A stretch of DNA of 64,000 bases from Patescibacteria group bacterium. GTDB lineage: Bacteria; Patescibacteriota; Minisyncoccia; Minisyncoccales; RBG-13-36-15. The notes beneath the pieces were generated by a model that saw nothing but the letters and a program-made list of their open reading frames with translations, searched no databases and was not told where the DNA came from. This document shows, piece after piece, positions 14,037 to 51,153 of the stretch (positions are counted from its first letter, which is position 1; every line of letters begins with the position of its first letter). Where the stretch lies: the NCBI GenBank assembly GCA_018609195.1, contig JAHCSE010000004.1, forward strand, positions 8,474-72,473, given 5' to 3'. Position numbers and translations under genes: made by a program.

Positions 14037-14064
14037 CACTTGATTTTACTCAACCAAAAATTTT

Positions 14065-14526: not shown

Positions 14527-17379
14527 ATGAATAATAAAGAAGAATCAAAATATATTTCTCTTCAGGAAGCTACAAAATACTGTTCCTATTCTCAGGATTA
14601 TTTATCTTTGCTGGCGAGAACCGGAAAATTGAAGTCAGTAAAGATTGGCAGGAATTGGGTGACTACCAAAGAATGGATTGAGGAATATATAGAAAGAGTG
14701 AAAGAGTTTAATAATTATAATCGGTTACCCAAAAAGAATCTCATCAGGGTTGAAGTTAAATTCGAGGAAGAGGAAATCTCAGAAAGTCCGTCCCCATTAT
14801 CTGAGTCTTCAGAGGACACTTCACCTTTTCAAGAGTTGCCAAAAGTTAGACAACCAGAGCAAGCCCCCCTCCTTATTTTAGCTTTTGCCCTGGTTTTTGT
14901 TTTACTGATAGCTGCCGGAATTTTTGGTAAAGAGAATTTCAAAAATGCTTTTCAACAGATCGATCCTTATGTAACAGCAATTAATCAAGAAGTTGATGAA
15001 GGAATTGTCCAAGGATGGAAAGGGATTCAGAAAGGGGTTCAGGGGATTGGTGGAGCTGGAGATTTTGTTTTTGAAGGGGCAGCTAAATCTTTTGAAGAAA
15101 GTTTTGTTACGGTCTCTAGGGATGCTTATCAATTCTCCCGGGAAGCTGTTTCCATGTTTGGAGAAATTACGGTTCTCGGTTCAGTAGGGGCTAATCAATT
15201 AGCTGAGGTTTCTCAGGAAATTCCAAAATCAATTTTGGAATCGATAAAAAACATTGGCCAATCAATAGGCCAAGGAACAAAAAATATGGCCTCTGGTATT
15301 AGTTCTCGGCTCTCAGGTTTGGCTCAATTCGTCAGCCAGCTTTTCAAAAGAGAAACACTGGTTAAAGTAGAAAAAGAAGTAATACCCGAAGAGTTAGAAA
15401 AAGAAATTGCTAAATTGGCAGATGAGATTGGAAAATTAAAACTGAGAGGATTTCCAGAAAAAGGTCCTCAAGGTCCTCAAGGTTCGCCTGGACCTCCTGG
15501 TCCTCAAGGTCTCTCCGGGCCTCAGGGCCCCACTGGTCCTCAAGGTCCCTCGGGCCCTCCAGGACCCTCTGGGCCTCAAGGAGTGGCAACTCTAGCTGCA
15601 CGTTTTGCAAATTTAAGCACCAATACCGTTTCCATCGGAGGTAATTTTGATTCTCTCAACATAGGAAGAGGGAATCTTACCGTTGATTCAGCTGGAAGTC
15701 TTACTACCTCAGGTTCTCTTACTGTTTCAGGAACAATTACAGAAGGAGGAACCTCCCTAACCTCCAAATATATTGGTATTCCCTCAGGCTCTACTCAGGG
15801 AGATGTTCTCTATTACAGTGGGGCTGCTTGGGCAAGATTAGCAGCAGGGAGCTCTGGCCAATTTTTACAAACCCAAGGTTCCGGAGCTAATCCTGTTTGG
15901 GCAACAGTAACTTCTGGTTCTACTCTCTGGACAGACGGAGGCACTGTAACTTATCTAACCGCAATCTCTGATGATCTGGCCCTGGGAGGAACTGATTCCA
16001 CTGCTCCCTTCTTCATGGATGTTTCAACTGGGAGCCTGGCACTCACTGGTTCTCTCACCGGAACCGTCCTCAACTTAACTGGTCTCACCAACCAGATTGT
16101 TTTAGATTCAGACGGAACAAACACTGGAACCTTAACCATGGCTTCTCTTTCTGCTTCAAGAACCTGGACCTTACCTAATGCTACCGGCACTGTGATCACC
16201 GCAGGAAACCTCACTGATATCACTTCTGTTACCGGGTTAAACACCCAAAATGCCCTCCAACTTGGTCCCTTCGGTTCCTCAGCAGGAAACACAGGAGAGA
16301 TCAGGTTCTTAGAACTTGCTGCCAGTGGTACTAACTATGTAGGATTTAAAGCTCCTGATGCCATTACCACCAATGTAATTTGGACTCTTCCTGCAGCAGA
16401 TGGCACAGCAGATCAGGTCTTATCCACTAATAGTTCAGGAGTTCTCTCCTGGGCTACTGCCGGAGGTCTCTTTACTGATGGCGGAACCACCACCTATCTG
16501 ACCTCAACCACTGATGATTTAGCCCTTGGAGGCACAGATTCCACTGCTCCCTTCTTCATGGATGTTTCAACTGGGAATTTGACTCTCACAGGTGATCTTG
16601 CTGTCAACGGTGGGGATATTACTTCAACTGGCGCACTTACAATCACGCCTGGAGCTGGAACCAACTTCAATATTGCTCTTTCAACCACTGGAGATTTTGC
16701 CGTCAACACCAATCAACTCTTTGTTGATACCTCAACCGGCCGCGTCGGCATCGGGACGGCGAGTCCAGCCTTCAAACTTGATGTGTTAGGCAGTATCAGA
16801 GCCTCGGACGCCTTTCTGTTCTTCGACGGCTCCACTCAAGCTATGGCAAGCACTCCCAGTGGATTTTCCTGGCGTGTCACTACAGCTTCCTTCCTCCAGT
16901 TATTTAACGTAGCAGGAGAGGAAACAAATCCCCGAGGCGTTTTCTTCAAGCCTGACGGAACAAAGATGTATATTATAGGACTTATTGGTGATGATGTCAA
17001 TGAATATAACTTGTCAACTCCCTGGGATGTCTCAACTGCTTCGTTCCTCCAGTTATTTAGCGTATCAGGAGAGGAAACAGTCCCTACAGGCGTTTTCTTC
17101 AAGCCAGACGGAACAAAGATGTATGTTATAGGGTCTACTGGTGATGACGTCAATGAATATAACTTATCAACTCCCTGGGATGTCTTAACAGCTTCGTTCA
17201 ACCAGTTATTTAGCGTGGCAGGAGAGGAAACAGTCCCTACAGGCCTCTTCTTCAAGCCAGACGGAACAAAGATGTATGTTATAGGGCAAAGTGGTGTTGA
17301 TGTCAATGAATATAACTTATCAACTCCCTGGAATGTCTTAACAGCTTCGTTCCTCCAGTTATTTAGCGTATTAGGATAG
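14527..17379 (+). CDS. giant surface-fibre protein, N-terminal part (HTH, TM, collagen-like, tail-fibre-like repeats, 51-aa repeats); ends at in-frame TAG
   Basis: 950 codons. N-terminal excisionase-type HTH ([46 protein letters not shown]), TM helix [22 protein letters not shown], 13 G-X-Y triplets, repeated [16 protein letters not shown] blocks. Confidence 0.85.
15463..15579 (+). repeat. collagen-like G-X-Y tract (13 triplets)
   Basis: [39 protein letters not shown], read in the gene frame. Confidence 0.9.
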
Positions 17380-17634
17380 GAAATAGTCCCTACAGGCGTT
17401 TTCTTCAAGCCAGACGGAACAAAGATGTATGTTATAGGGACTGCTGGTGATGAGGTCAATGAATATAACTTATCAACTCCCTGGGATGTCTTAACTGCTT
17501 CGTTCAACCAGTTATTTAGCGTGGCAGGAGAGGACACAGCCCCTACAGGCGTTTTCTTCAAGCCAGACGGAACAAAGATGTATGTTATAGGAGATAATGA
17601 TGATGATGTCAATGAATATGACTTAGGCCTTATC
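16870..17634 (+). repeat. five tandem 153-nt (51-codon) repeats inside the giant gene
   Basis: Units start at 16870, 17023, 17176, 17329 and 17482. Consensus W[DN][43 protein letters not shown]. Confidence 0.9.
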
Positions 17635-19395
17635 ATAGAAGGCAACGTCGGCATTGGGACGACGGGGCCGGGGTCCAAATTAGATGTTACTACCAACTCT
17701 CTGGGCATTACCCAGACTAATACTTCTGGCCTGGCTCTGGTCAATACCACTGCTGCTGCAGCTGGGTTGCAGCAGATATCCCCAGCTCTAAGGTGGAGAG
17801 GGTTTGGCTGGAAAACCGGTGGTCCTAACCCTGCTAGTCAGTCAGTCGACTTTAGATCTTTCGTGAGGCCAATTCAAGGAGCAGCCGCTCCCACGGGTGG
17901 ATTAGATTTTCAAAGCAGTATTAATGGTGGAGCTTACAGTGACTTGTTGACGATTTTAAGCACGGGCAACGTCGGCATCGGGACGGCGAGTCCTATAAAA
18001 AAACTCTCAGTCGCCGGTAAATTTTATTCACACAAAGACGCTGATATCACAGCCAGAAATTACCTCACTGATAATTCCTGGGTCTCCAGAACTTCAGCCG
18101 CTGACAATAGTTGGTTTGCCATAACCTGGTCTCCGGAGCTTGGCCTGTTCGCCGCCGTAGCTGACTCCGGCACAGACAACCGGGTCATGACCTCTCCAGA
18201 CGGCATTACCTGGACAATCAGAACTTCAGCCGCTGACAATGATTGGCTTGGCATAACCTGGTCTCCGGAGCTTGGCCTGTTCGCCGCCGTAGCTGCCACT
18301 GGCACAGGCAACAGGGTCATGACCTCGGTCAGCTCAAAATTGTCGCCTATGGTGAGCGTAGTAGCTGCTACGGACGACCGCGAAACTTTGTGTATAGCTA
18401 TCGGTGGCGGTGTTGTTACTAGAGATGCCGCAGGCAATGACTGCGACATTTCCTCTGCACGCTTCAAATATAATATTGAGGAACTTGATATTAACGGCAT
18501 TGACATCGTGAATTCTTTTAAACCTTCGTCCTTTATTAAAAATTCTGATAAGACAAACAGAATACAATGGGGATTTATTGCTGAAAATATTGCGGTAAGC
18601 AACCCACACCTTGCTTTGTATGACGAAGATGGTCTTCCGTATTCAATATCAAAGTATGGAATTATGGCGGTACTCGCCAAATCCATTCAAGAAATCTCCC
18701 AGCGCATAGATCTAACAGAAGAAAGCTTGGCATTCTTACAGCCTGACAGCCAACAGCCAGAAGGAGATTCTTTACTTGATGGTTTTGTTCAAAAAATAAA
18801 ACAAGCCTTAGCTTCCCTGGGGCTCGTAATTGAAAATGGAATTTTACAGGTTCAGAAATTAGTCGCAGGTGTTATAGAGACCGAAAATTTGAAAGTGGGA
18901 AGCCCAGAGAAGCCAACTGGCGTTACTCTCTATGATGAGGTGAGTGGTCAGTCATATTGTATTAAGATACGAAACGGGCAGATGGTAAGTTATGAGGGAG
19001 AATGCCAAGCAGGAAACCCTTCTGACCAAGCACTAACTGAAGAGCCGCCGGTTGAACAATCACCAGTAGAGCCATCTTCTACCGAACCACCTCCCACTGA
19101 GCCCCCGGTAGAGCCATCTCCAGCTGAGGAACCTTCAGGAGAACAACCCCCCACTGAAGAGCCTACGATTGAAGAACCACCAGCTGGACAAGAACCTCTG
19201 GTTGAAGAACCGCCAATAGGGGAGCCTCCATTAGAAGAACCACTTGCTGGAGAATCACCACCTACTGAGGAGCCACCAATTGAGGAACCACCTCCTTTAG
19301 AAGAACCACCAGCTGAGGAGGAACCTCCAGCTGAGGAACCCATAGTTGAAGAACCAGTTGTTGAGGAACCTGTTCTGGAGGAGCCAGCTGAATAA
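17425..19395 (+). CDS. giant surface-fibre protein, C-terminal part (same frame as 14527..17379; frame open from 17380)
   Basis: 656 codons. Contains VGIGT..P..KL.V tail-fibre motifs, two BNR/Asp-box-containing repeats (SPDGITW), an S74-type intramolecular chaperone signature (SSARFKYNIEEL...WGFIAENI) and a P/E-rich tail. Confidence 0.8.
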   Translation: MYVIGTAGDEVNEYNLSTPWDVLTASFNQLFSVAGEDTAPTGVFFKPDGTKMYVIGDNDDDVNEYDLGLIIEGNVGIGTTGPGSKLDVTTNSLGITQTNTSGLALVNTTAAAAGLQQISPALRWRGFGWKTGGPNPASQSVDFRSFVRPIQGAAAPTGGLDFQSSINGGAYSDLLTILSTGNVGIGTASPIKKLSVAGKFYSHKDADITARNYLTDNSWVSRTSAADNSWFAITWSPELGLFAAVADSGTDNRVMTSPDGITWTIRTSAADNDWLGITWSPELGLFAAVAATGTGNRVMTSVSSKLSPMVSVVAATDDRETLCIAIGGGVVTRDAAGNDCDISSARFKYNIEELDINGIDIVNSFKPSSFIKNSDKTNRIQWGFIAENIAVSNPHLALYDEDGLPYSISKYGIMAVLAKSIQEISQRIDLTEESLAFLQPDSQQPEGDSLLDGFVQKIKQALASLGLVIENGILQVQKLVAGVIETENLKVGSPEKPTGVTLYDEVSGQSYCIKIRNGQMVSYEGECQAGNPSDQALTEEPPVEQSPVEPSSTEPPPTEPPVEPSPAEEPSGEQPPTEEPTIEEPPAGQEPLVEEPPIGEPPLEEPLAGESPPTEEPPIEEPPPLEEPPAEEEPPAEEPIVEEPVVEEPVLEEPAE

Positions 19396-22519: not shown

Positions 22520-22537
22520 CATCTTTAATACTCTCTA

Positions 22538-22622
22538 GGGACTTGCCCTCCCAAATTTTTGGACTGCTTTTGCTAAATCTGAAACCCTTGGTTCCGGTCC
22601 AAAAACTTGGGAGGGCTTGACA
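22538..22622. repeat. hairpin element IR2 (inverted orientation relative to IR1)
   Basis: Arms gggacttgccctcccaaatttttggac (22538-22564) and gtccaaaaacttgggagggcttgaca (22597-22622). The reverse complement of the right arm matches the IR1 left arm 23/26. Confidence 0.85.
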
Positions 22623-22644
22623 AAATTTTCTAAGGGATTAAAGT
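22617..22644 (+). promoter_or_regulatory. candidate promoter carried by IR2, pointing at rpoB
   Basis: TTGACA (22617-22622), 16 nt, TAAAGT (22639-22644). Parallels the minus-strand TTGACA-16-TAAAAT of IR1. Confidence 0.4.
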
Positions 22645-22712
22645 AAAAATAGATTTTCTGGCCCGGATATTTTGATATTTGAATTTCTGCAATTAAATCT
22701 TTAGAGATTTTG

Positions 22713-33168: not shown

Positions 33169-33207
33169 ACGATTTTTTTAGTTAGAGTTAAATAACTTAT
33201 TAAATAT

Positions 33208-33238
33208 ACAAAAACTGCTTTTAAAAGCAGTTTTTGTT
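33208..33238. terminator. bidirectional terminator between convergent recA and rpsR
   Basis: ACAAAAACTGC-ttttaaaa-GCAGTTTTTGT, A/T-flanked on both sides. Confidence 0.75.
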
Positions 33239-33293
33239 GTCTTTATTTCTTAAATGCCCACTGTTTTCACACACAGCAAGCTACCCAAACTAC

Positions 33294-33491
33294 TTATTTA
33301 GTAATATATGGAAGTAATCCAAGATAACGAGCCCTCTTTATTGCTCGAGCTAATTTTCTTTGATGAAAAGAACAGACCCCAGTTCTTTTTTTAGCTCTAA
33401 TTTTAGCTAAACCGGAAATAAATCTTCCTAAAAGTCTCGTATCTTTGAAATCGATTTCCTCTATACTCTTTTGGCAAAAATAACACTCCAT
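33294..33491 (-). CDS. rpsR: 30S ribosomal protein S18
   Basis: CYFCQKSIEEIDFKD...FISGLAKIRAKKRTGVCSFHQRKLARAIKRARYLGLLPY. ATG 33491 (MECYFC) is preferred; the track start at 33542 extends into a palindromic spacer. Confidence 0.85.
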   Translation of the reverse strand: MECYFCQKSIEEIDFKDTRLLGRFISGLAKIRAKKRTGVCSFHQRKLARAIKRARYLGLLPYITK

Positions 33492-39052: not shown

Positions 39053-39136
39053 TGCCCCCGGCTGGACTCGAACCAGCACGACTTTTAAGTCCTTGGTTCC
39101 TGAAACCAAGGCGTCTTCCAATTCCGCCACGGGGGC
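39053..39136 (-). tRNA. tRNA-Leu (anticodon CAG)
   Basis: Hand-folded: acceptor GCCCCCG/CGGGGGC, anticodon arm TTGGT-TTCAGGA-ACCAA, long variable arm GACTT-aa-AAGTC, T arm GCTGG-TTCGAGT-CCAGC, discriminator A. CCA is not encoded. Confidence 0.9.
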
Positions 39137-39144
39137 AAATTGGG

Positions 39145-39173
39145 TTGACAAAAAATTACGGAATTGTTATATT
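39145..39173 (+). promoter_or_regulatory. near-consensus promoter of the candidate sRNA
   Basis: TTGACA (39145-39150), 17 nt, TATATT (39168-39173). Confidence 0.55.
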
Positions 39174-39179
39174 ATTATT

Positions 39180-39377
39180 TAGTACCTTCCTGGGCGGGTT
39201 GTCCCGAGGTATACCGGTCGCTGCTGAAGATGAAGAGCCAACTACTTAGAGGCCATTCCATTGTGAGTGGGGGTGGTTCTTCCTCTGCTAGACTGTAGCA
39301 ATCCGGTCCGGCAATATACCATCTGGGCAACCCGTCCTCCAGCGCCTTCAAGTTCCAGCTAAGGCTGGAACTTTTTG
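39180..39377 (+). ncRNA. candidate sRNA of about 200 nt with rod-like fold (unclassified; 6S-like shape only)
   Basis: 13-bp closing helix GGGCGGGUUGUCC (39192-39204) / GGGCAACCCGUCC (39325-39337). Further paired blocks GGUAUA/UAUACC, CCGG/CCGG, GAAGAGCCA/UGGUUCUUC. Terminator AGTTCCAGC-taag-GCTGGAACT plus T5 (39351-39376). Confidence 0.45.
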
Positions 39378-39425
39378 CTTTCGGCTAGCCTCTTCTTTTT
39401 TATTTCCACACTCGCTTGGTCTTAA

Positions 39426-39607
39426 TGTACCAATTCGTCGCTCGCCCTCATCCAGCCTTACGGCTGGCCCGAGCACATAAATTATGTGCTCGGTTCGGGC
39501 TCGCTCCCCAGACACCCTCGGTTTCTGGCGTTCGTCGCTTCGCTCCTCACTGTTTTCCTACACGGGAAAACACCCAGTTTTCCCGACCCCTTTCTGAAGA
39601 ATGGTAC
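39426..39607 (+). repeat. structured repeat family, copy B
   Basis: 5' domain with hairpins CCAGCCTTACGGCTGG and CGAGCACATAA-at-TTATGTGCTCG. Then CCAGACACC-ctc-GGTTTCTGG, CTGTTTTCCTACACGG, GGGAAAAC-accca-GTTTTCCC and CCGACCCC. Ends pair as TGTACCA / TGGTACA. Confidence 0.85.
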
Positions 39608-39615
39608 AGACAAAG

Positions 39616-41634
39616 CTATTTCCATGCTCGCTTTGTCTTGATGTACCATTCTTCAATTCCGATAAATCTTTTTGAGGGGTCAGCGATTACTCCTTCTTCT
39701 ATTCCTTTGATTTCTCTGGATACAGGATAAAGATAATTAGGGGTGTATAAAAAGACAGCTGGGACATCAGTAATTAAAATTTCCTGGAACCTTTCATATT
39801 TTTCTCTTCTTTCTTCCTCATCAAAAATCTTTCGAGCTTCCTCTAAAATTTTATCCACCTCTCTATTTTCATAAAGTGCCAGATTCAATCCAGGGTCTTT
39901 TTTTTGAGAAGAATGCCAAAAAGGATAAGGATCCGCTATTAAACCTGTTACTTTGCCAAAGAGCAAAATTTCATAATTTCTTGATTCTAAGTAATCTTGC
40001 CGAAAAGTTGAAAGATCAAATTTTTTAATTTCAAGATCTACTCCTAATTTTTTCCATTGCTCCTTTAAGATGTCTGCTACCTGGGAAAGTTCCTCTTGAT
40101 CAACGGTAACTAAAGAAAGCTTTAAAATTAAGCGTTCCTCTGGAGCCTCAATACAAATTTCATTAAGTTTAGCCCGCGTCGTTTTACTCACTATCCCTGT
40201 TCCTGCTGTAAAACCCCAGGGGTCTAAAATATCTTCGGCATATTTTTCTTGAAATCTGATTACCGCCCCTTTCGTTTTTTGGCCAAAATAACCTGTAATT
40301 TGACCTTCAGGATAAATCTGGAAGTCTTTGGCTAGACAGGCCTGTAATTCTCTAACCTCTCCCCCCTGAGATCCAGATTTAAGGTCTAATGTAAAGAGAG
40401 AGGCTATTGCTTTTTTAAGAATTTTTTCCCTTTGACCATCTTGATCTTCATCCTTCCAGTTAGCTGCTTCTAAAATCTCTATTCCTTTTTCTAAATTAAA
40501 TGGGTAGATATTGAGAGGAGGAGAAAAAGCTGAGATTTCAGGAAGAAGAGGGGAATGAATTATTCTCCCTTCGTTAAAAAGGACCTCTTTAATAATCTCC
40601 TCTTTGTCAGTTCCATAATTTAAGGCTTTTCTTACCTCTTTTTCAGCTAAGATCTTTGAATTTTTGAGATTGAAAGAGAGATCAAAGTATCTTGGGAAAG
40701 AGAGTTTATGAATCTTAAATTCCTCTCGATTTAAACTTTGGGCAGATTTCGGCGATATTACTGATGCTCCTTTTATTTCTTTTTTTTCTAAGGCCTCAAT
40801 AAGATCTTTTTCTTCTTCAAAGAAATGGAAGGTAATTTCCCTAAGAAAAGGTTTTTTCCCGAAATAATTAGGATTTCTAACTACGGTTAAAGATTGAATA
40901 TACCCTAATTTATTTTTAGTTAAATTCTTAAATTGAAAGGGACCTGTACCAACTGGTTGAAGATTAAGAATGGCTAAAGGAAAATTCTGGGGAGGAATAT
41001 CTTGCCAGATATGTTTTGGCAAAACCTTCAGGGTTAAAGTTTCTAAGAAAGGAGGATAAGGATTTTTTAATTTGAAGCGAACTCTTAAGTCGGAAACTTT
41101 CTCAACTGTAACGCCGAGAAGAGAAGCGCGGATGGAACTTTTGTAATCTGGATCTTGAATTGTCTTTATAGTAAATAAAACATCTTCTGCCGAGAAAGGT
41201 TCCCCATCTGAAAAATAAACATTATCTCTCAAAAAAATTTCATATACTTTTCCCTCATCAGTAATTTTATATTCTTTAGCTAAGTCAGGAATTATTTCTC
41301 CTTCTCCATTGTATTTTAACAAGCCAGAGAATAAAAGCTCAGTTAAATCCCTGTCTACATCAGATGATGTCGCATAGATTGGATTGATAAATTGGGGTCT
41401 GCCAATTACGCCCTCCGTATACACTCCTCCTGGGGCTGGTTGAATTTTGGTATTTTGAAAATAAAAATTTAAAATCAAAAAGAGACCAGACGAAAACGCT
41501 AAAAAAAATAAGATAGAAAAAGCAATTTTCTCTTCTTTTTTAAAGACTTTTAGAGCCTGTCTCCACTGAGAAAAACTTGGGAATTTTCTTAGTTCTTGAA
41601 AAGCCAATTTAATTTTTCTTAATTGAAAAACCAT
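39616..41634 (-). CDS. family-5 (OppA/DppA-like) substrate-binding protein with embedded peptidoglycan-binding domain
   Basis: 672 aa with an N-terminal TM anchor and SBP_bac_5-like body. An insert at about 40180-40392 matches the PG_binding_1 pattern (GGEVRELQACLAK...GYFGQKTKGAVIRFQEKY...TRAKLNEI). Confidence 0.75.
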   Translation of the reverse strand: MVFQLRKIKLAFQELRKFPSFSQWRQALKVFKKEEKIAFSILFFLAFSSGLFLILNFYFQNTKIQPAPGGVYTEGVIGRPQFINPIYATSSDVDRDLTELLFSGLLKYNGEGEIIPDLAKEYKITDEGKVYEIFLRDNVYFSDGEPFSAEDVLFTIKTIQDPDYKSSIRASLLGVTVEKVSDLRVRFKLKNPYPPFLETLTLKVLPKHIWQDIPPQNFPLAILNLQPVGTGPFQFKNLTKNKLGYIQSLTVVRNPNYFGKKPFLREITFHFFEEEKDLIEALEKKEIKGASVISPKSAQSLNREEFKIHKLSFPRYFDLSFNLKNSKILAEKEVRKALNYGTDKEEIIKEVLFNEGRIIHSPLLPEISAFSPPLNIYPFNLEKGIEILEAANWKDEDQDGQREKILKKAIASLFTLDLKSGSQGGEVRELQACLAKDFQIYPEGQITGYFGQKTKGAVIRFQEKYAEDILDPWGFTAGTGIVSKTTRAKLNEICIEAPEERLILKLSLVTVDQEELSQVADILKEQWKKLGVDLEIKKFDLSTFRQDYLESRNYEILLFGKVTGLIADPYPFWHSSQKKDPGLNLALYENREVDKILEEARKIFDEEERREKYERFQEILITDVPAVFLYTPNYLYPVSREIKGIEEGVIADPSKRFIGIEEWYIKTKRAWK

Positions 41635-41642
41635 CTAAGCCT

Positions 41643-41861
41643 TTAGAAAATAAGATTTAAAAGAGCTAAGGTAATAAAAAGAGCTCCTAAAATTACTGAT
41701 CCCCAAAAAATTTTTTTTTGGATTCCTCGTCTTGTTCCATAAAATCCTCCTCCTCCCCCACCAAAAGCTGATCCCAACGCCGTTCCTCTTTGTTGCAATA
41801 AAATAAAGACAATTAACAAAATAGCAACAATAATTTGGGCAAGGATCAAAAATTTTTCCAT
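41643..41861 (-). CDS. secG: preprotein translocase subunit SecG
   Basis: 72 aa. Two TM helices flanking LLQQRGTALGSAFGGGGGGFYGTRRG, the glycine-rich loop typical of SecG. Confidence 0.8.
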   Translation of the reverse strand: MEKFLILAQIIVAILLIVFILLQQRGTALGSAFGGGGGGFYGTRRGIQKKIFWGSVILGALFITLALLNLIF

Positions 41862-41864
41862 ATT

Positions 41865-42263
41865 TTATTTACGAGCTCTTTGAAATTTAGGAAAGAAAAT
41901 TGAGACCAAAATACTAGTTCCCAAAACCAAAAGAGTGGTCAAAAAAAGGGGTAATAATCCTTCGATTTTCAGTTCCGGGAAAATAATATCTACCAGTAAA
42001 ATCATTCCTACATTAATGACTAAACTAAAAAGGCCAAAAGTTAGAAACCAAAGGGGGAGAGTAATAAATTTTAAAATAGGTTTTAAAAAAAAATTCAAAA
42101 GACCAAGAATAATCCCTGCTAAAAACAGAATTTGAATTTCTCCTTCAAATTCTACCCCAGAGACAAATTGAATAGCTAAGAAAAGACCTAAGATACCAGC
42201 AATTATTTGCAAAAGAAGTCCTCTCACACCACTTAGAATAGCTAAAATTAAAAAAGAAGTCAA
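41865..42263 (-). CDS. four-TM membrane protein (holin-4/YvlD-like family)
   Basis: 132 aa, four hydrophobic helices. The pattern ...FLKPILKFITLPLWFLTFGLFSLVINVGMILLVD... resembles the PF04020-type family; this was not verified. Confidence 0.5.
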   Translation of the reverse strand: MTSFLILAILSGVRGLLLQIIAGILGLFLAIQFVSGVEFEGEIQILFLAGIILGLLNFFLKPILKFITLPLWFLTFGLFSLVINVGMILLVDIIFPELKIEGLLPLFLTTLLVLGTSILVSIFFPKFQRARK

Positions 42264-42272
42264 TTGAACGGC

Positions 42273-43628
42273 TTAATACCCAATCAAGGCCTTCCTTCTT
42301 AGTTTTCTATGGTAGCTTATTGCAAAACGGTGGGCTTCATCTCTCAGTTGTAAAATGAGATTGAAAATTGGGCGAGAAAGAATTTTTAGTAAAATGGGCT
42401 TCTTTCTGTTTTCTACATAAAGCTCATTTTTTCTCTTAGCTAAAGCTAAGACGCTGATTTTTGCTGATTTTAAGACTGATTTTCGCTGATATTTCTTAAG
42501 AACCTGTAAAGCTGCATTTAATTGGGCCTTGCCGCCATCAATTAACATTACATCTGGAAAAGGCCATTCAATATGCCTGAGCCTTCTTGATAAAATTTCT
42601 TTGAGCATTGCAATATCATTGGGTTTCTCCTCAATTTTTATTTTAAATTTCCGATAAAAATTTTTATCTGGCATGCCTTTTACAAATGTAACCATTGAAC
42701 CAGTAGCTTGTTTCCCTTGAATATTAGAGACATCATAGGCTTCAATTCGGGAAATTTGTTTCTTTGTTTTGAGAAGATTTTGCAGGATTTTTTGAATATC
42801 AGACCAATCTTTTTCTGGCATCAATTTTTCTTCCTTAAATATTTTAGCATGAGCAAAGACATTTTCCAAAGCTCTTATTTGATCTCTTATTTTAGCTGCC
42901 TTTTCAAAATCTTGGACTGAGCTTAAAAATTTCATTTCTTTTTTGAGGGTTCTTAAAACCGATTTTCTTTTCCCCTTCAAAACACTGATTACATATTTGA
43001 TATTTTTCCTGTATTCTTTTATATCAGGATCAGGCCCCGGACAAAGCCCTAAATTGCAATAAACACAGGGAGTTTTCGTGTGCGTTTTTGAGGTGTAGTA
43101 AGGGAAAACTCTCCTGAGAAATCGTAAAGTAAGCTTCAGCGGTCTCCCTATAACAAAAGGACCAATATAAATAGCTTTTGGGCTTGCCCGCCTAGTCCCG
43201 CCTCTTTTGGAAAGGGGCGGGATTTGGGTGGGTTGATGAGTGATAAAAATTCTTGGTAAATTTTCCTTTGTAATACCAATGTAAAAAAATTTTTTGTCAT
43301 CCCGCCAGATGACATTATATTTTGGCTGGTATTTTTTAATTAAATTTGCCTCTAAAATTAAAGCCTCAATTTCTGAGTCAGTTTTGAGGTATCCTACTTT
43401 TTGGACAAGATTTAAGAAAAGATTATCTCGAAAGCCTGGGTGTTGAAAATGATTCTTCACCCTTTCTCGGATATTTGAGGCCTTCCCAATATATAAGAAC
43501 CTTGACTTCGTCAAGAACCTTGAATGCTCCGCATTTAAAAATTCTCTACCTTGCTTAAAGGCATAAACCCCAGGACTTTTTGGCAAAATTTTAATGTTAT
43601 TTTTTGTGATGAATTTAAATTTCTCCAT
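42273..43628 (-). CDS. uvrC: excinuclease ABC subunit C (short form without C-terminal HhH2)
   Basis: 451 aa. GIY-YIG N-terminus (PGVYAF...LYIGKASNIRERVKNHF), UVR motif QDFEKAAKIRDQIRALENV, endonuclease domain ending RDEAHRFAISYHRKLR. Confidence 0.88.
   Translation of the reverse strand: MEKFKFITKNNIKILPKSPGVYAFKQGREFLNAEHSRFLTKSRFLYIGKASNIRERVKNHFQHPGFRDNLFLNLVQKVGYLKTDSEIEALILEANLIKKYQPKYNVIWRDDKKFFYIGITKENLPRIFITHQPTQIPPLSKRGGTRRASPKAIYIGPFVIGRPLKLTLRFLRRVFPYYTSKTHTKTPCVYCNLGLCPGPDPDIKEYRKNIKYVISVLKGKRKSVLRTLKKEMKFLSSVQDFEKAAKIRDQIRALENVFAHAKIFKEEKLMPEKDWSDIQKILQNLLKTKKQISRIEAYDVSNIQGKQATGSMVTFVKGMPDKNFYRKFKIKIEEKPNDIAMLKEILSRRLRHIEWPFPDVMLIDGGKAQLNAALQVLKKYQRKSVLKSAKISVLALAKRKNELYVENRKKPILLKILSRPIFNLILQLRDEAHRFAISYHRKLRRKALIGY
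43180..43232 (-). repeat. GC-rich palindromic mini-insertion in uvrC
   Basis: Plus-strand gggcttgcccgcctagtCCCGCCtcttttggaaagGGCGGGatttgggtgggt. Encodes about PPLSKRGGTRRASPK. Confidence 0.65.
43495..43523 (-). repeat. 18-nt-period direct duplication inside the GIY-YIG motif of uvrC
   Basis: AAGAACCTTGA cttcgtc AAGAACCTTGA on the plus strand, with palindrome CTTGAC-ttc-GTCAAG. Protein reads SRFLTKSRFL. Confidence 0.7.
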
Positions 43629-43729
43629 AACACAAGTATTATAGTAAAAAATTCTCGATTATTCAATTCTTCGCCCACTCTCTTTCAAAAAGCTGTTTTT
43701 CTATAAAACTTCTGGTTATAATTAGTATA

Positions 43730-44593
43730 ATGCAAACTTTTAATTTCAATATAATATTGCAGGCTGGAATTGTCATCTTGCTTTTCTTCACAATTATGAG
43801 CCTTTATGGTTTTTTTATTGCGATCCGACCATCCAAAATTCATTCCTCTTTGACTCCGGCTAATTTTGATTTGGATTTCGAAAGCTTGACCATAAAGACA
43901 GCAGATAAAGTTGAGCTGAAAGGATGGCTTATCTCAAACCAAAATTCAGACAAAATTATCATTGCTCTTCACGGGTATCCTGCAGATAAAGGTAATATTC
44001 TTCCTGCGCTTTTGTTTCTCCAGGAAGATTTTAACCTCCTCTTTTTTGATTTTCGCTACCTGGGAGAAAGCAGCGGGTTTTACACTACTATAGGGGCAAA
44101 GGAGGTGAATGATCTTTTAGCTGCACTTTCGTTTGCAAAAGAGCGAGGTTTTAAAAAAATTGGGGTGTGGGGATTCTCTATGGGGGGAGCGGTAGCCTTA
44201 ATGACCGCCCATAAAACCTCAGATATCAATGCCATTGTAGCTGATTCAAGCTATGCAGCGCTTTCCTTGCTTTTAACTGAACCTTATCGTAATTTCGCTT
44301 TCTTTAAATATCCCTTGGCATTTTTCACGCGCCTTTGGCCCAGAATATTTCTTGGAATATCTATTACTGAAGCCTCCCCTGTCAAAAAAATAAAAGGGAT
44401 AAAAATCCCCATTTTGCTCATCCATTCCCCAGAGGATGAAGTTATTCCTTTCTCGCATGCTCTTTTATTAAAAGAAGCGCTTAAGGATAATCCCAGGGCT
44501 GAATTTTGGTTTGAGGAGGGAGCTTTACACGGGGAAATCAAAAAAGAATACCAAGAACGCATCAGAGAATTTTTCCAAAAAAATCTCCAATGA
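43730..44593 (+). CDS. alpha/beta-fold hydrolase with N-terminal membrane anchor
   Basis: 287 aa. Nucleophile elbow GFSMGG, HG oxyanion motif ALHGYP, C-terminal Asp/His region. Confidence 0.75.
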   Translation: MQTFNFNIILQAGIVILLFFTIMSLYGFFIAIRPSKIHSSLTPANFDLDFESLTIKTADKVELKGWLISNQNSDKIIIALHGYPADKGNILPALLFLQEDFNLLFFDFRYLGESSGFYTTIGAKEVNDLLAALSFAKERGFKKIGVWGFSMGGAVALMTAHKTSDINAIVADSSYAALSLLLTEPYRNFAFFKYPLAFFTRLWPRIFLGISITEASPVKKIKGIKIPILLIHSPEDEVIPFSHALLLKEALKDNPRAEFWFEEGALHGEIKKEYQERIREFFQKNLQ

Positions 44594-44644
44594 ATTTTAT
44601 AAACACATTAACTTTCTCCTTGTCGCAATGAGTAAAGCTTATTT

Positions 44645-44755
44645 TTATTTCTCACAAGTGCATTCTTCTGCCTTTTTTCCGCATCCTGAACAGGCATCAT
44701 CTTTAATTTCTCCTCCGCATTTATTACATGGTGTGCAGCCGCAAACTTGACACAT
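44645..44755 (-). CDS. 36-codon cysteine-rich small ORF (9 Cys), below the ORF-track cutoff
   Basis: Hand-translated: MCQVCGCTPCNKCGGEIKDDACSGCGKKAEECTCEK*. Lies 52 nt downstream of, and co-oriented with, the TrxR-like gene. No clear Shine-Dalgarno. Confidence 0.4.
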   Translation of the reverse strand: MCQVCGCTPCNKCGGEIKDDACSGCGKKAEECTCEK

Positions 44756-44807
44756 AATTTTTTTACATTTTTAATTAGTTATAAGAAACGACCTTTCCAA
44801 CTTTACT

Positions 44808-45725
44808 TTATGTTTGATCTGCGTATTGTTCAAGACCTTTTAACTTTTTAATAATGGAAATGGCTGCATTACAGCCCTCTCCTGCGTCTTTTGCAATCTG
44901 GGGGTTACCCCCAGTGGCGCCTCCTGCAGCATATACACCTTCTACCTTAGTGAAACTATCCTGATTAATGACAATAAATCCATCTTTTAAAGGAAGTTTG
45001 AGTTTTTCAGCAAAGGTTAAAGAAGGTGTCACCCCCAATGCTAAAAAAATTCCATCGAGGATTAGATTTTCACCATCGCTGGTCTCGGCCGCCTCCACAT
45101 TTTTTTTGCCTAAAACTTTCACAATTTTTTTCTCTTCAAGCTTTATTCCTTTTTCTCTTAGGTTCTTTTTTATATGTTCTGAAAATTTCCAAGGCCTCTT
45201 TTGGGAGAAAATAACGACACCCTTCGTAAAAGAAGTGAGTTCTAATGCTTCCTCAGCTGCATGATTCCCTTCCCCAATTACTGCGACTTTCTTGTCTTTG
45301 TAGAGAAAACCATCACATACGACACAAGTATGCACTCCTTTTCCTAAAAACTCTTTTTCTCCCTCAATTCCAGCCATAGTAGGAGCAGCTCCATTTGCAA
45401 TAATGATTGTTTTTCCGAAATATTCTTTACCCTCACCAGTTTTCATCTGAAAATCACCCTCTTTTTTTACTATATCTATAACCTCTTCCCGGAGAAGTTC
45501 TCCTCCATACCTTCTCATTTGCTCAACTGAATTTTCAAGAAGTGATAAACCTGTCGGCTCTCCTAAAATTCCAAAAATATTGCCGATTCTTTTTCCAAAA
45601 GCTAAATCTGATTCTTCTGGTTTTCCAATCACCAGAGTCTTTATTTGAGCTCTTGTCAAAAAGAGAGCAGCTTGCAATCCAGCCGGTCCCGCCCCAATAA
45701 TGATGGTATCAAAATTTTTGTTCAC
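44808..45725 (-). CDS. thioredoxin-reductase-like FAD/NAD(P) oxidoreductase
   Basis: 305 aa. GAGPAG FAD motif, redox pair CVVCDG (canonical TrxR has CATCDG), second dinucleotide fold VAVIGEGNHAAEEA. Confidence 0.8.
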   Translation of the reverse strand: MNKNFDTIIIGAGPAGLQAALFLTRAQIKTLVIGKPEESDLAFGKRIGNIFGILGEPTGLSLLENSVEQMRRYGGELLREEVIDIVKKEGDFQMKTGEGKEYFGKTIIIANGAAPTMAGIEGEKEFLGKGVHTCVVCDGFLYKDKKVAVIGEGNHAAEEALELTSFTKGVVIFSQKRPWKFSEHIKKNLREKGIKLEEKKIVKVLGKKNVEAAETSDGENLILDGIFLALGVTPSLTFAEKLKLPLKDGFIVINQDSFTKVEGVYAAGGATGGNPQIAKDAGEGCNAAISIIKKLKGLEQYADQT

Positions 45726-45805
45726 CTCATCTTTATAATAATCTCAAAAAAATAAAGGGTCAAACTAGCTTTTCTAGTGGTAAGACTTTAATCTCACCGC
45801 TTTTA

Positions 45806-45834
45806 TTGATTTTTTTGAAAATTTAATATATAAT
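45806..45834 (+). promoter_or_regulatory. candidate promoter for the uvrA leader
   Basis: TTGATT (45806-45811), 17 nt, TATAAT (45829-45834). Confidence 0.5.
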
Positions 45835-45840
45835 GGGAAA

Positions 45841-46047
45841 CTCAATATGCCTGAGTCGCGGCACGCGACACTTACCTTCGGCAAGTGCGCTATCACCGCT
45901 CCTTAGAAACCCACGGTTTCTAAGTATCACCCCAAATTCGCTTGCGCTAGAATTTGGGGACCCCGATTTTGGCGAAAGCCTGTTTTCCTTCACGGGAAAA
46001 CGCCCACTGTTCACACACAGCCCAGTTTTCCCGACCCCTTTCTCATT
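45841..46047 (+). repeat. structured repeat family, copy C (uvrA leader)
   Basis: Hairpins GTCGCG-gca-CGCGAC and CACTTACC-ttcg-GCAAGTG. Then TTAGAAACC-cac-GGTTTCTAA, CCCCAAATTC...GAATTTGGGG, GAAAGCCTGTTTTCCTTCACGG, GGGAAAAC-(23-nt loop)-GTTTTCCC and CCGACCCC. Confidence 0.85.
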
Positions 46048-46056
46048 TTCATTAAC

Positions 46057-48963
46057 ATGAAAAATAATTACATAAAAATTAGGGGAGCCAAAGTTCATAA
46101 CCTAAAGAATATTGATATTGATATTCCCAAAAATAAAATGGTGGTAATTACCGGGATTTCAGGATCTGGAAAGAGTTCTTTAGCTTTTGATACTTTGTAT
46201 GCAGAAGGCCAGCGCCGATATGTGGAAAGTTTATCTGCTTATGCCCGTCAATTTTTAGGTGTGATGGACAAACCGGATGTCGAAAGGATTGAGGGAATTT
46301 CTCCTGCTATTTCCATTGATCAGAGAAAGGCAGCCCATAACCCAAGATCGACAGTGGGTACCATTACTGAAATTTACGACTATTTAAGGTTATTATTTGC
46401 CAAAATTGGGAAGCCTCATTGCCCAAAATGTAAAAAGCCAGTTTCCAAACAGACCATTGATCAGATTACAGAGCAAATTTTAAAATTACCTAAAAAAACA
46501 GAGATTACAATTTTGGGACCAGTCATTCGGGGCAGAAAGGGAGAGCATCGGGGAATATTAGAAGAAATTCAAAGAGGAGGATTTGTGAGGGTGAGGATTG
46601 ATGGAATTTTATATCGGATTGAGGAAGCGCTAGAGCGAATTTTAGAGCGCAAGAAAAAACACAATATTGAAGTAGTGGTGGATCGAGTGGTGATTGAAAA
46701 AAATCTGGAACGGGCTCGTCTCGTTGATTCGATGGAGACTGCCCTAAAATTAGGAAAAGGCATAGCGATTGTTGGAGTTGTTGGAAATGTCCAATCAGCC
46801 TCCAACCCTGTTTTAAATATTCATCATCAACAGAGGAAACTAACCAACAAAGGAAAGCGATCAAACATCTCAGACATTATATTCAGCGAGCATTTTACCT
46901 GTGAAGAATGTCGAATTTCTCTACCTGAGTTAGAGCCGAGACTCTTTTCTTTTAATTCCCCCTACGGAGCTTGTCCGGCCTGTCAAGGATTGGGGGAGAA
47001 ATTGGAAGTTGACCCAAAATTAGTCATTCCCAATAAAAACTTAACCATAACTGAAGGAGCAATTCGTCCTTGGATGAGAGCCTCTCATAAATTAGGCCGC
47101 CAGAGTTATTTCTGGTGGCAGTTATCTGATTTATCTGAGAGAAGAAATTTTTCCTTATCCATCCCAGTTAAAAATTTATCCAAAAAGATTACCGATGTTA
47201 TTTTATATGGCGATGAGGAGTTTGAAGGAGTTGTTCCTTCCCTGGAAAGAAGATATCGCGAGACTGAATCAGAATATACCAGAGAAGAAATTGAGCAATA
47301 CATGATTGAAAAAAAGTGTGAAGCTTGCCAAGGAAAGAGATTAAAGCCCGAAGTGCTATCTGTAACCATAACTGGGAAATCAATTGATGATTTAGTCTCA
47401 ATAAGTGTAGATAGATTAAAGGAGTTTTTTGAAAAATTAATAAAAAATCGAGGAAATCTGTCCTCGAGTTTTAAAATTGCTGCCCCTATTATCAAAGAAC
47501 TTATCAATCGTTTGCAATTTTTGATTGATGTCGGTTTAAATTACTTAACTATTGATCGAAAGGCAGGGACTTTAGCGGGTGGTGAGGAGCAAAGAATAAG
47601 GTTAGCTACTCAAATTGGCTCAAAACTGACAGGGGTATTATACATTTTGGATGAACCCTCAGTTGGCCTCCATGCTAGAGATCAAGGAAGATTAATTGAA
47701 ACTTTAAAAAAATTGAGAGATTTGGGAAACACCATTGTGGTGGTAGAACATGATCCCCAGACAATTAAAGCTGCAGATTGGATAATCGATATAGGGCCTG
47801 GGGCAGGGGAACAAGGAGGAAAAATAACTTTTGAGGGTACACCAAAAGCACTTCTCAAGGCTCACACTTTAACTGGTGAGTATCTGGCAGGTAAAAAGAA
47901 AGTGGAAATCAAAGCTTCCCAGTCATCTGTCTCTAGTCAGACAAGTACAAAAAGCTCAGATCGGAAGGAGCTTATTATCAAGGGGGCAACAGAGCACAAT
48001 TTAAAAAATATCGATGTGAAAATTCCTTTAGGTAAATTTGTTTGTATTACCGGAGTTTCGGGATCTGGAAAAAGTTCTTTAATGAATGATATTTTAGCCC
48101 GGGCCCTTCTTCAAAAATTTTACAATAGCAAAGAAGGACCAGGAAGACACAAAGATATTTTAGGTTGGGAAAATTTAAACAAGATAGTTTTGGTTGACCA
48201 ATCACCAATCGGCAGAACTCCGAGATCTAATCCAGCTACCTACACAGGAGCTTTTTCTTACATGAGAGATCTTTTTTCTAAAACCAGGGAAGCCAGAATT
48301 AGGGGGTATCTGCCAGGTAGGTTTTCTTTTAATGTCAAAGGAGGAAGATGTGAGGCCTGTGAAGGTCAAGGAGTGAAAAAAATTGAGATGTATTTTTTAC
48401 CAGATGTCTATGTTGAATGTAAAGAATGCAAGGGGAAAAGATTTAATAAAGAAACTCTATCCATTGAATATAAAGGAAAAAATATTTCAGAGGTTTTAAC
48501 AATGACAGTTAAGGAAGCTCTTGATTTTTTCAAAGCAATTCCTGGTCTTTTCCAAAAATTAAAAACTTTAGATGAAGTTGGTTTAGGTTACGTTCAGCTT
48601 GGTCAACCTGCTCCTTCTCTTTCTGGAGGAGAGGCTCAGAGGGTAAAATTATCCACTGAGCTTTCCAGAAAGGCAACTGGAAAAACTTTATATATTTTAG
48701 ATGAGCCCACCACTGGTTTGCATTTTGACGATATTAAAAAACTTTTAAGGGTTTTAAGAGAATTAGTAGACCGAGGAAATACAGTTTTGATAATTGAACA
48801 CAATTTAGATGTAATCAAGAATACTGATTGGATAGTTGATCTGGGGCCAGAAGGCGGTGAGGAAGGAGGATACATTGTTACCGAAGGTGAACCTTTTGCG
48901 ATAATCAAAAATAAAAAAAGTTATACTGGAAAATATCTCAAACCAGTGTTGAGAAAAACTTGA
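46057..48963 (+). CDS. uvrA: excinuclease ABC subunit A
   Basis: 968 aa. Two ABC modules (GISGSGKSS, GVSGSGKSS; LSGGE signatures) and zinc-finger Cys clusters. Confidence 0.95.
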   Translation: MKNNYIKIRGAKVHNLKNIDIDIPKNKMVVITGISGSGKSSLAFDTLYAEGQRRYVESLSAYARQFLGVMDKPDVERIEGISPAISIDQRKAAHNPRSTVGTITEIYDYLRLLFAKIGKPHCPKCKKPVSKQTIDQITEQILKLPKKTEITILGPVIRGRKGEHRGILEEIQRGGFVRVRIDGILYRIEEALERILERKKKHNIEVVVDRVVIEKNLERARLVDSMETALKLGKGIAIVGVVGNVQSASNPVLNIHHQQRKLTNKGKRSNISDIIFSEHFTCEECRISLPELEPRLFSFNSPYGACPACQGLGEKLEVDPKLVIPNKNLTITEGAIRPWMRASHKLGRQSYFWWQLSDLSERRNFSLSIPVKNLSKKITDVILYGDEEFEGVVPSLERRYRETESEYTREEIEQYMIEKKCEACQGKRLKPEVLSVTITGKSIDDLVSISVDRLKEFFEKLIKNRGNLSSSFKIAAPIIKELINRLQFLIDVGLNYLTIDRKAGTLAGGEEQRIRLATQIGSKLTGVLYILDEPSVGLHARDQGRLIETLKKLRDLGNTIVVVEHDPQTIKAADWIIDIGPGAGEQGGKITFEGTPKALLKAHTLTGEYLAGKKKVEIKASQSSVSSQTSTKSSDRKELIIKGATEHNLKNIDVKIPLGKFVCITGVSGSGKSSLMNDILARALLQKFYNSKEGPGRHKDILGWENLNKIVLVDQSPIGRTPRSNPATYTGAFSYMRDLFSKTREARIRGYLPGRFSFNVKGGRCEACEGQGVKKIEMYFLPDVYVECKECKGKRFNKETLSIEYKGKNISEVLTMTVKEALDFFKAIPGLFQKLKTLDEVGLGYVQLGQPAPSLSGGEAQRVKLSTELSRKATGKTLYILDEPTTGLHFDDIKKLLRVLRELVDRGNTVLIIEHNLDVIKNTDWIVDLGPEGGEEGGYIVTEGEPFAIIKNKKSYTGKYLKPVLRKT

Positions 48964-48987
48964 CAAAGTTTTTGCAGAAGCTAATAT
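48960..48987 (+). promoter_or_regulatory. groESL promoter
   Basis: TTGACA (48960-48965, overlapping the uvrA stop), 16 nt, TAATAT (48982-48987). Confidence 0.6.
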
Positions 48988-48998
48988 GAAAAATAGAA

Positions 48999-49025
48999 TT
49001 AGCACTCAAACGCTTTGTTTGCTAA
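48999..49025 (+). promoter_or_regulatory. CIRCE-like operator (HrcA site)
   Basis: TTAGCACTC-N9-GTTTGCTAA versus consensus TTAGCACTC-N9-GAGTGCTAA. The left half is perfect and the right half matches 7/9. Confidence 0.7.
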
Positions 49026-49035
49026 AATGGCGATT

Positions 49036-49326
49036 ATGAAAATTAAACCTCTCTCTGATCATATTTTAATTGAGCCAATGAAACGGGAGGAGAAAACTAA
49101 GACGGGGATTTTGTTACCAGAAACTGCTGAAAAAGATAAGCCAGAACAAGGGAAGGTGGTGGCTGTGGGACCAGGGAGGAAGACTTCCTCAGGTAAAGTT
49201 ATTCCTTTAGAAGTAAAAGAAGGGGATATTGTTTTATTTACAAAATATGGACCAAATGAAATAAAAATTGATGATAAGGAATATTTAGTTGCTAAAGAAG
49301 AAGATATATTAGCGATCCTCGAATAG
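49036..49326 (+). CDS. groES: co-chaperonin GroES
   Basis: MKIKPLSDHILIEP...GKVVAVGPG.... The track start at 49015 lies inside the CIRCE site. ATG 49027 and ATG 49036 are both possible. Confidence 0.9.
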   Translation: MKIKPLSDHILIEPMKREEKTKTGILLPETAEKDKPEQGKVVAVGPGRKTSSGKVIPLEVKEGDIVLFTKYGPNEIKIDDKEYLVAKEEDILAILE

Positions 49327-49327
49327 C

Positions 49328-51153
<1,826 letters not shown>

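Follow-up and report, generated by a model that had tools for sequence, protein, structure and literature searches.

A structured non-coding repeat family of Patescibacteria with direct and inverted copies of its target at its flanks

Introduction

The DNA at 39426-39607 (+) raises the question of what kind of element it is, since it recurs in the window (the whole stretch of 64,000 nucleotides analysed here) at 10189-10330 (+), 45841-46047 (+) and 49328-49530 (-), with sequence differences that preserve the pairing of its hairpins. A sequence-only reading had described these four copies, A (10189), B (39426), C (45841) and D (49328), as an unclassified functional RNA fold on a dispersed, probably mobile, element. 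Structured RNA genes, leaders of the adjacent genes, scars of integrated elements and a mobile element of another kind are considered below.

Four copies in the window

The four copies were verified in the sequence at these coordinates and on these strands. A covariance model constructed from 77 homologous cores from other genomes and copy B recovered all four in the window with scores of 47.3-93.7 bits (E 1.5e-22 to 1.4e-10), namely copy B with 93.7 bits at 39490-39596 (+), copy A with 79.4 bits at 10209-10328 (+), copy D with 71.5 bits at 49337-49461 (-) and copy C with 47.3 bits at 45900-46044 (+). The 16-mer CTGTTTTCCTNCACGG occurred four times exactly, and with up to three mismatches six matches were found, compared to 1.35 expected. 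The parts of the copies are listed here, P1 to P4 being stems and Z1 and Z2 the two direct copies of the target.

39426-39608, + strand: copy B, the fullest copy, with closing stem P1, 5' domain, P2, degenerate P3, conserved strand, P4 and tail
39400-39436, + strand: Z1 of copy B, a second copy, in reverse complement, of the final ~11 codons and stop of SBP_bac_5 (WYIKTKRVWK-stop)
39452-39492, + strand: 5' domain of copy B, common to copy D, with hairpins CCAGCCTTACGGCTGG (39452-39467) and CGAGCACATAA..TTATGTGCTCG (39470-39492) in the MFE structure
39508-39528, + strand: P2 (hairpin 1) of copy B, CCAGACACC-CTC-GGTTTCTGG
39550-39562, + strand: invariant single strand of copy B, CTGTTTTCCTACA, in invariant alignment columns
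39563-39585, + strand: P4 (terminal hairpin) of copy B, CGGGAAAAC-ACCCA-GTTTTCCCG, with covarying pairs
39587-39594, + strand: tail of copy B, candidate third strand, CCCCTTTC, which mirrors the P4 3' strand
39596-39616, + strand: inverted target copy of copy B, GAAGAATGGTACA + GACAAAGC, the 3' arm of P1 (MFE fold), with additional pairing to Z2
39617-39654, + strand: Z2 of copy B, the reverse complement of the working SBP_bac_5 3' end (EWYIKTKRAWK-stop)
39616-41634, - strand: SBP_bac_5 gene, from its ORF and Pfam
10189-10330, + strand: copy A, with 5' hairpin 10190-10226, P2 10227-10247, P3 10251-10279, conserved strand 10282-10294, P4 10295-10317 and tail 10319-10326
45841-46047, + strand: copy C, with P2 45903-45923, P3 45930-45959, conserved strand 45980-45992, P4 45993-46033 including a 24-nt loop insert, and tail 46035-46042
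49328-49530, - strand: copy D, with core start 49517, P2 49443-49423, P3 49420-49391, conserved strand 49389-49377, P4 49376-49348 and tail 49346-49338
33190-33301, + strand: degenerate partial copy that follows recA and its terminator, with 61 % identity to copy A over 41 nt

All stems named in the sequence-only reading were found: hairpin 1, the variable hairpins of copies A, C and D, the terminal hairpins and the 5' domain common to copies B and D. The compensatory swap of TT..AA to CC..GG in hairpin 1 of copy B was confirmed, as was that of CGAGCACATAA/TTATGTGCTCG to CGAACACATAA/TTATGTGTTCG in the 5' domain, a region in which copy B has a 47-nt match (91 % complementary) to 49474-49520 of copy D.

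Two further fragments had been claimed. The one at 33256-33281 (+) is part of the degenerate partial copy, which was the next best match of the covariance model in the window after copies A to D (33190-33293, 10.5 bits, E 0.44), whereas the one at 13803-13815 is a bare 13-mer identity without model support (E 2.5) and was regarded as a chance match, because dozens of 13-mer repeats are expected randomly in 64 kb. The loop insert of copy C (46002-46025) is related to 33256-33281 in the remnant behind recA, and both hold CTGTT(TT)CACACACAG, a variant of the conserved CTGTTTTCCTNCACGG; an internal partial duplication of the element is suggested.

Distribution of the family

With a two-part search pattern taken from the element's 3' half, genomes of bacteria and archaea, one for each species, were searched. 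More than 116 loci were among the matches listed, and ~107 of those listed were from Patescibacteria (Parcubacteria/Paceibacteria), representing at least ~76 genomes, including Nealson-, Staskawicz-, Yonath-, Taylor-, Niyogi-, Vogel-, Zambryski- and Azambacteria and other Parcubacteria/Paceibacterota. The ~9 matches in other phyla lacked the rest of the element, and their number equalled the chance expectation. When 100 of the pattern loci were scanned with the covariance model, 111 matches were obtained, of which ~9 were extra copies missed by the pattern. The group closest to the window genome by GroES identity was Nealsonbacteria.

The earlier designation as unclassified was upheld, since no family of Rfam 15 was found on any copy. 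At gathering thresholds the whole window gave two tRNAs only, and at E<=10 the regions 39300-49700 and 39130-39620 gave nothing credible on any copy. A literature search by motif strings and topic gave no description of the element, and a scan of 2.9 million viral contigs gave 0 matches to it. The element is a previously undescribed repeat family, restricted to Patescibacteria, small (about 100-210 nt) and non-coding. The family is large and extends over much of the Parcubacteria.

No transposase, integrase or reverse transcriptase was found to be encoded in the 64-kb window, from its ORFs and from Pfam searches of the unassigned ORFs. All-against-all clustering of 910 flanking ORFs revealed no recurring mobility gene, but housekeeping families only. 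No RAYT-like gene was seen near the 100 loci or in the window, and as regards retrons and group II introns, there was neither a recurrent neighbouring protein family nor an Rfam intron match.

In one genome with the groES-groEL copy (L120, 1792-1837) the contig end falls inside the element, right after groES, which suggests that the repeat breaks short-read assemblies of these genomes.

Gene context and orientation

The four copies in the window, about one per 16 kb, comprise two sense leaders (A and C) and two antisense copies (B and D). Copy A is preceded by the terminator stem of the gene before it (10132-10149) and a promoter-like sequence, TTGAGT-17-TATAAT (10156-10184), and followed by the ligA ATG at 10366 (LigA by Pfam). 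Copy C lies between the promoter-like TTGATT-17-TATAAT (45806-45834) and the uvrA ATG at 46057 (UvrA by Pfam), with a divergent thioredoxin-reductase-like gene opposite; both promoter-like sites resemble the consensus and end 5-7 nt upstream of the copies. Copy B is flanked by tRNA-Leu (-) and the 3' end of SBP_bac_5 (-) and is antisense to both, and copy D occupies, also in antisense, the spacer between groES and groEL (Cpn10 and Cpn60 by Pfam).

The placement of copies A and C between a promoter-like site and the start of ligA or uvrA, together with the remnant after recA, could indicate a cis-regulatory, riboswitch-like leader of DNA-repair genes. However, copies B and D and ~80 % of the homologues are antisense to their neighbours, and the contexts in the family are diverse, including tRNAs, EF-G, ribosomal proteins, NusG, chaperonins and many others. 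A DNA-repair regulon or cis-leader was rejected, since it is contradicted by the context statistics: the gene downstream was convergent for 69 of 81 copies and the gene upstream divergent for 55 of 70. Such a leader is highly improbable.

Copies of the family are situated at gene boundaries, most commonly in antisense directly behind the 3' end of a protein, tRNA or tmRNA gene. With ~80 % of the copies antisense to their neighbours and the rest sense, the reverse complement of the element is therefore co-directional with the host genes in ~80 % of cases. The bias could result from the insertion mechanism, from coupling to the direction of replication, or from selection against disturbed host transcription.

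Several other features of the window were recorded. Between tRNA-Leu and copy B, at 39145-39375 (+), a strong promoter-like TTGACA-17-TATATT with an upstream TG is followed by ~175 nt of GC-rich sequence and an intrinsic terminator (39350-39373); the region, a candidate small RNA, matched nothing in Rfam at E<=10. The 590-nt intergenic region at 13594-14186 contains several GC-rich hairpins and two terminator-like hairpins, again with no Rfam match at E<=10. Inverted repeats of ~113 nt at 14040-14152 and 22536-22647 (71-93 % complementary), with a third partial copy at 14432-14460, bracket 8.4 kb encoding collagen-like and tail-fibre-like repeat proteins (Collagen, Peptidase_S74, HTH_17 N-terminus), and this region could be a cassette or an invertible segment. 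Tandem coding repeats (15454-15581, 16868-17626 and 19024-19360), with units that are 9-nt collagen-like, 153-nt, or proline/glutamate-rich, were present within large surface-protein-like ORFs.

Fold and covariation of the core

In the orientation of the sequence-only reading, the first block of the core is GTCGCT..CGCTC, often interrupted by extra hairpins such as the 5' domain of copies B and D. P2 follows as a 9-bp hairpin, UAGAAACC-CNC-GGUUUCUA, in which the inner 7 bp were invariant and the outer 2 bp covaried (UA/CG/AU) across 78 sequences. P3 is free in sequence and length and sometimes absent, but nearly always perfectly paired, so that perfect stems unrelated in sequence occur at different loci. 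The invariant strand 3' of P3 is CUGUUUUCCUNCA. P4 consists of CGG and a purine-rich strand, a loop, and a pyrimidine-rich strand and CCG, and it is followed by a single A and a pyrimidine tail beginning with CCCC.

In P2 and P4, 97.8 % of the cells were paired among the 78 sequences. The covarying pairs of P4 were GC42/AU35, AU49/GC27 and AU55/GC20. Doubly changed cells numbered 143, compared to 42.5 ± 6.3 in shuffled alignments (0 of 500 shuffles as high), and slid registers had far lower covariation scores than the true stem register. The compensatory changes that the sequence-only reading had seen in four copies thus persist when homologues are added, and they are as expected of a structured RNA.

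The tolerance of G:U pairs and the strand asymmetry expected of a structured RNA were, however, absent. Wobble-type cells made up only 3 of 1248 stem cells. The ratio of G:T to A:C was 8:14 in P1 and 3:2 in P3, with no stem having an excess of G:T, and P3 folded slightly better on the reverse strand. Copy B folded with -70.8 kcal/mol (z -7.5) and its reverse complement with -81.2 kcal/mol (z -6.6), i.e. with similar z-scores on both strands. The apparent UUCG loops, considered as a strand cue, were mostly UUC triloops. The symmetric compensation in the stems still argues that the element acts while single-stranded. Of the functional RNA fold on a mobile element that had been proposed, the structure and the mobility were supported, while action as RNA is only putative, given the 3 wobble cells in 1248 and the folding of both strands.

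The tail as a candidate third strand

The tail, which begins with the tag CCGACCCC, is a mirror image of the 3' strand of P4, as in GGGAGGAU..AUCCUCCC GA CCCCUCCUU, GGGGAAAC..GUUUCCCC GA CCCCUUUC and GGGAAGGA..UCCUUCCC GA CCCCUUCCU. When base i of the purine strand, its Watson-Crick partner and tail base i+28 were read together, the combinations were mostly (G,C,C) or (A,U,U). Among 64 distinct sequences the counts of (G,C,C) and (A,U,U) at three variable positions were 30+22, 23+37 and 16+32, and three further tail/P4 positions were invariant (G,C,C). Over four variable positions, 191 of 256 cells fitted this parallel register, compared to 115 ± 7 after shuffling (0 of 10000), and all shifted registers of the tail fitted at most 133 of 256 cells. 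An independent pair counter gave the tail register a score of 0.577, compared to 0.310 ± 0.021 (0 of 500 shuffles). A search for an antiparallel partner that accounts for the covariation of the tail found none.

The covariation suggests that the tail may lie as a third strand in the major groove of P4, with C.G-C and U.A-U triples, because a complement-like relation in parallel register is the expectation for a pyrimidine strand in the major groove. The rules of the pyrimidine motif, under which the third strand runs in parallel with the purine strand and places C at G-C and U/T at A-U pairs, were observed in the covariation. A purine-motif triplex is equally allowed on the reverse strand. Runs of C+.G-C triples are unfavourable at neutral pH.

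The core could alternatively belong to functional structured-RNA genes or modules, with the flanking copies described below as part of their design; variants would be a stable small RNA with a 5' arm antisense to the 3' end of the neighbouring gene, or an RNA protected at its 3' end by the triple helix. This would agree with the invariant unpaired nucleotides and covarying stems in ~76 genomes, with the consensus-like promoters 5-7 nt before copies A and C, with the bidirectional terminator that follows copies of the tRNA type and is common with the tRNA, and with the pyrimidine-motif register, which fits known RNA triplexes. Against it are the near absence of wobble pairs (3 of 1248), the lack of any promoter travelling with the element, the ~80 % of copies antisense to both neighbours while the remainder are sense, a density of about one copy per 16 kb, which is high for an RNA gene, and sites that are filled in some genomes and empty in close relatives. 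On balance a functional RNA was considered unlikely.

Direct and inverted copies of the target

In well-preserved loci the target end Z is followed by the core, a short inverted target copy and Z again. Direct repeats exceeded the shuffled sequences in 54 of 99 loci, and Z ranged from 10 to at least 113 bp. The longest, in L018, consisted of 113 bp (possibly about 135 bp) of the upstream region and first 12 codons of fusA, and other long Z were of 73 bp (L008), 66 bp (L020) and 64 bp (L027). The inverted copy sits between the tail and the second Z; in some loci, such as L059 and L066, it spans the uninterrupted insertion point. It can pair with the end of the first Z to form the stem that closes the element, and closing stems with a score of at least 8 were found in 39 of 100 loci, compared to 1 of 100 shuffled controls. 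The arms of this stem (P1) have a different sequence in each locus, matching the target there, and terminal inverted repeats owned by the element were not present.

The whole pattern of Z, core, inverted copy and Z is visible in copy B, in which the 5' arm of P1 is formed by the last 11 nt of Z1. The direct repeat of Z1 and Z2 had a score of 45, compared to a shuffle maximum of 17, and third codon positions account for most differences between Z1 and Z2. No clear target repeats were seen in copies A, C and D.

A tRNA or tmRNA gene was located 44-81 nt downstream in 38 of 106 elements, and all 38 were antisense and 0 sense. On the tRNA strand the order is the tRNA, usually a bidirectional terminator-like hairpin, the inverted 3' part of the T-arm/acceptor, the core and the direct repeat. 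The latter usually starts 18 or 15 nt before the 3' end of the tRNA (T loop) and usually stops within a few nt of this end. At these 38 loci a direct repeat of the tRNA 3' end therefore flanks the insert, as is characteristic of integrative elements. In L076, at about 6360-6600, three successive remnants of tmRNA 3' ends lie behind one element, which points to serial events, and in L080 two adjacent copies (1979-2069 and 2142-2234) follow one tRNA-Lys; the arrangements in L076, L018 and L080 point to repeated use of the same targets.

This layout could also be left by miniature integrative elements or their scars, with the core as an attP-like arm, the repeats as attL and attR, and a tyrosine or Cas1-type integrase acting in trans. 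The direct repeat from the T loop to the tRNA 3' end is the classic layout of an integrase site, successive remnants are found at a tmRNA gene, and fusA 3' ends are also targets; casposons target aEF-2 and tRNA genes. However, there are dozens of targets, each with its own matching repeat, which one attP cannot supply: near-identical cores were found at tRNA-Thr, -Arg, -Gln and -Cys and at tmRNA, contrary to the specificity of a single attP. Repeat lengths of 10 to at least 113 bp and an inverted target copy are foreign to att sites, in the fusA locus of L004 it is the displaced copy, not the working one, that looks foreign, no integrase was nearby, and the viral contigs gave no match. Integrase scars are thus quite improbable.

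Signs of mobility and of exchange between genomes

That the element is dispersed and probably mobile, as first proposed, is supported by near-identical cores at different targets and by a site that is filled or empty. Near-identical cores, including the variable P3 and the 5' domain, were found at tRNA-Thr, tmRNA and tRNA-Arg in one genome, and at tRNA-Gln, tRNA-Arg and tRNA-Cys in other genomes. The groES-groEL junction is 2-3 nt long, and empty, in L121 and L123 (88-89 % GroES identity), filled by the element in the window and in L120, and occupied by unrelated inserts in L119, L124 and L122. L119 (1792-1942) and L124 (992-1144) have in common a different GC-rich structured element of ~150 nt, and L122 (992-1078) has an 86-nt palindromic CCCTAA-like insert. 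The groES-groEL junction is a hot spot for insertions.

Identical cores at different targets could also be the result of gene conversion, not of recent jumps, and the conservation of the core across distant lineages, together with the diverged copies of the window, fits a selected function as well as mobility.

The subfamily that includes copy D has a common flank, GCGAC-TAACTTTGTATTACCACT-ATG on the gene strand, which runs into the start codons of unrelated genes (groEL, nusG, rpmF, rplN and others) in L012, L014, L047, L061, L086, L091, L106, L107 and at 49518-49539 of the window. The D-type element may supply the upstream sequence of those genes. An interpretation of D-type copies as orthologous inserts of groESL was rejected, as the same flank motifs are found beside nusG, rpmF, rplN, a pilB-like gene and other genes.

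Gene ends other than those of tRNAs include fusA, which in L004 and L008 carries a copy of the element at the 3' end and in L018 has copies at both ends (1149-1253 and 3455-3545). At 16 protein-gene ends the differences between Z copies were distributed 37:22:79 over the three codon positions. In L004 the split was 2:3:21, with two amino-acid changes in 25 codons; both stops were kept, and the codon usage of the displaced copy was unlike that of the resident genome. The split and the codon usage exclude for L004 that the displaced gene end is a decaying fossil of the resident gene. Judged from this pattern of divergence, the displaced copy is probably part of an fusA that was working in another lineage until recently. 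The orthologue-like divergence in L004 therefore indicates that the element, together with adjoining gene ends, is involved in sequence exchange among genomes.

Proposed origin of the copies

The preferred reading, with a probability of roughly 0.55, is that of a non-autonomous mobile element that would insert by a copying-type process, spread by recombination at gene ends and depend on a factor, encoded outside it, that recognises its single-strand fold. Single-stranded, the core forms P2, P3 and P4 with the mirror-image tail, and the factor, encoded at another place in the genome, would recognise the invariant P2 and CTGTTTTCCTNCACGG. Insertion would proceed by copying on a single-stranded intermediate, through template switching or target-primed fill-in synthesis, and such copying would leave the direct-inverted-direct footprint; the template-switching step is proposed because of the footprint alone. 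Recombination at conserved gene ends would then carry copies, with the gene ends next to them, from one lineage to another. Any influence on host genes, as through the leaders of ligA and uvrA, the groESL spacer and the hairpins after stop codons, would be a side effect. The footprint, the sites filled or empty, the variety of targets and the divergence like that of orthologues were all observed; to these, this reading adds a copying mechanism and a factor in trans, which we infer.

A more far-reaching possibility, conceivable but tentative, is a new class of mobile elements without proteins of their own, in which a single-stranded core with a triple helix would drive or guide its copying into the ends of genes, or else a new catalytic or guide RNA. 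Each insertion would write the direct-inverted-direct triplication of its target, and the captured gene end would serve as portable homology for spread between genomes.

CPR genomes are very small, yet the window has ~1 element per 16 kb, and the element is found inside core operons (between groES and groEL), before ligA and uvrA and after genes for tRNA and tmRNA. If the picture of a mobile element with a structured core holds, this would be an unannotated class of repeats that could confuse gene calls at gene ends, with an insertion footprint that fits no described scheme of bacterial transposition or integration, and it may bring to light a new way in which DNA moves and diverged genomes recombine. 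It would also be a rare natural case of three-way covariation suggesting a contiguous triple helix.

Comparison with known systems

MITEs, REP/BIME/REPIN, BOX, ERIC and Correia elements are, like the present element, short, non-coding, intergenic, multi-copy and hairpin-forming, often within transcripts and lineage-restricted. The element differs from them in having neither terminal inverted repeats of its own nor a target duplication of fixed length; in the test for the latter, a feature of MITEs, the direct repeats varied from 10 to at least 113 bp. It has instead variable direct and inverted target copies, a multi-hairpin core and a mirror-repeat tail, and, in one orientation, shows a strong preference for tRNA and tmRNA 3' ends. 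REP and REPIN sequences are palindromes of 20-40 nt, single or in inverted pairs, associated with RAYT, whereas the core of the element is ~100 nt with three hairpins.

Tyrosine-integrase islands, CIMEs and casposons share with the element a repeat from the T loop to the tRNA 3' end, which leaves the host gene intact, as well as serial insertions at one site and the targeting of EF-G/EF-2 gene ends. Unlike integrase islands and casposons, the element is ~150 nt long and without an integrase, has many targets, each with its own repeat of variable length, and has an extra inverted segment of the target.

Pyrimidine-motif triple helices, as in H-DNA, the ENE/MALAT1 3' ends and the SAM-II and preQ1-II pseudoknots, resemble the proposed triplex in the parallel orientation of the third strand and the purine strand, in the logic of C.G-C and U.A-U triples and in the mirror-repeat signature. 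The mirror-repeat tail can be likened to designed intramolecular triplexes and, loosely, to RNA triplexes of the ENE type. Compared to H-DNA and RNA triplexes, the order in the element is purine strand, loop, pyrimidine strand, a linker of 1-2 nt and third strand, the triples would number ~6, the first three or four being C.G-C, and the putative triplex lies within a mobile repeat and is known from covariation alone.

Template switching, as in quasi-palindrome or fold-back events and DUP-INV-DUP rearrangements, produces the same direct-inverted-direct arrangement, with turns at hairpins and short joint spacers of unknown origin. In contrast to DUP-INV-DUP, the pattern of the element recurs at over 50 independent sites, and one of its turns is always occupied by the same foreign core.
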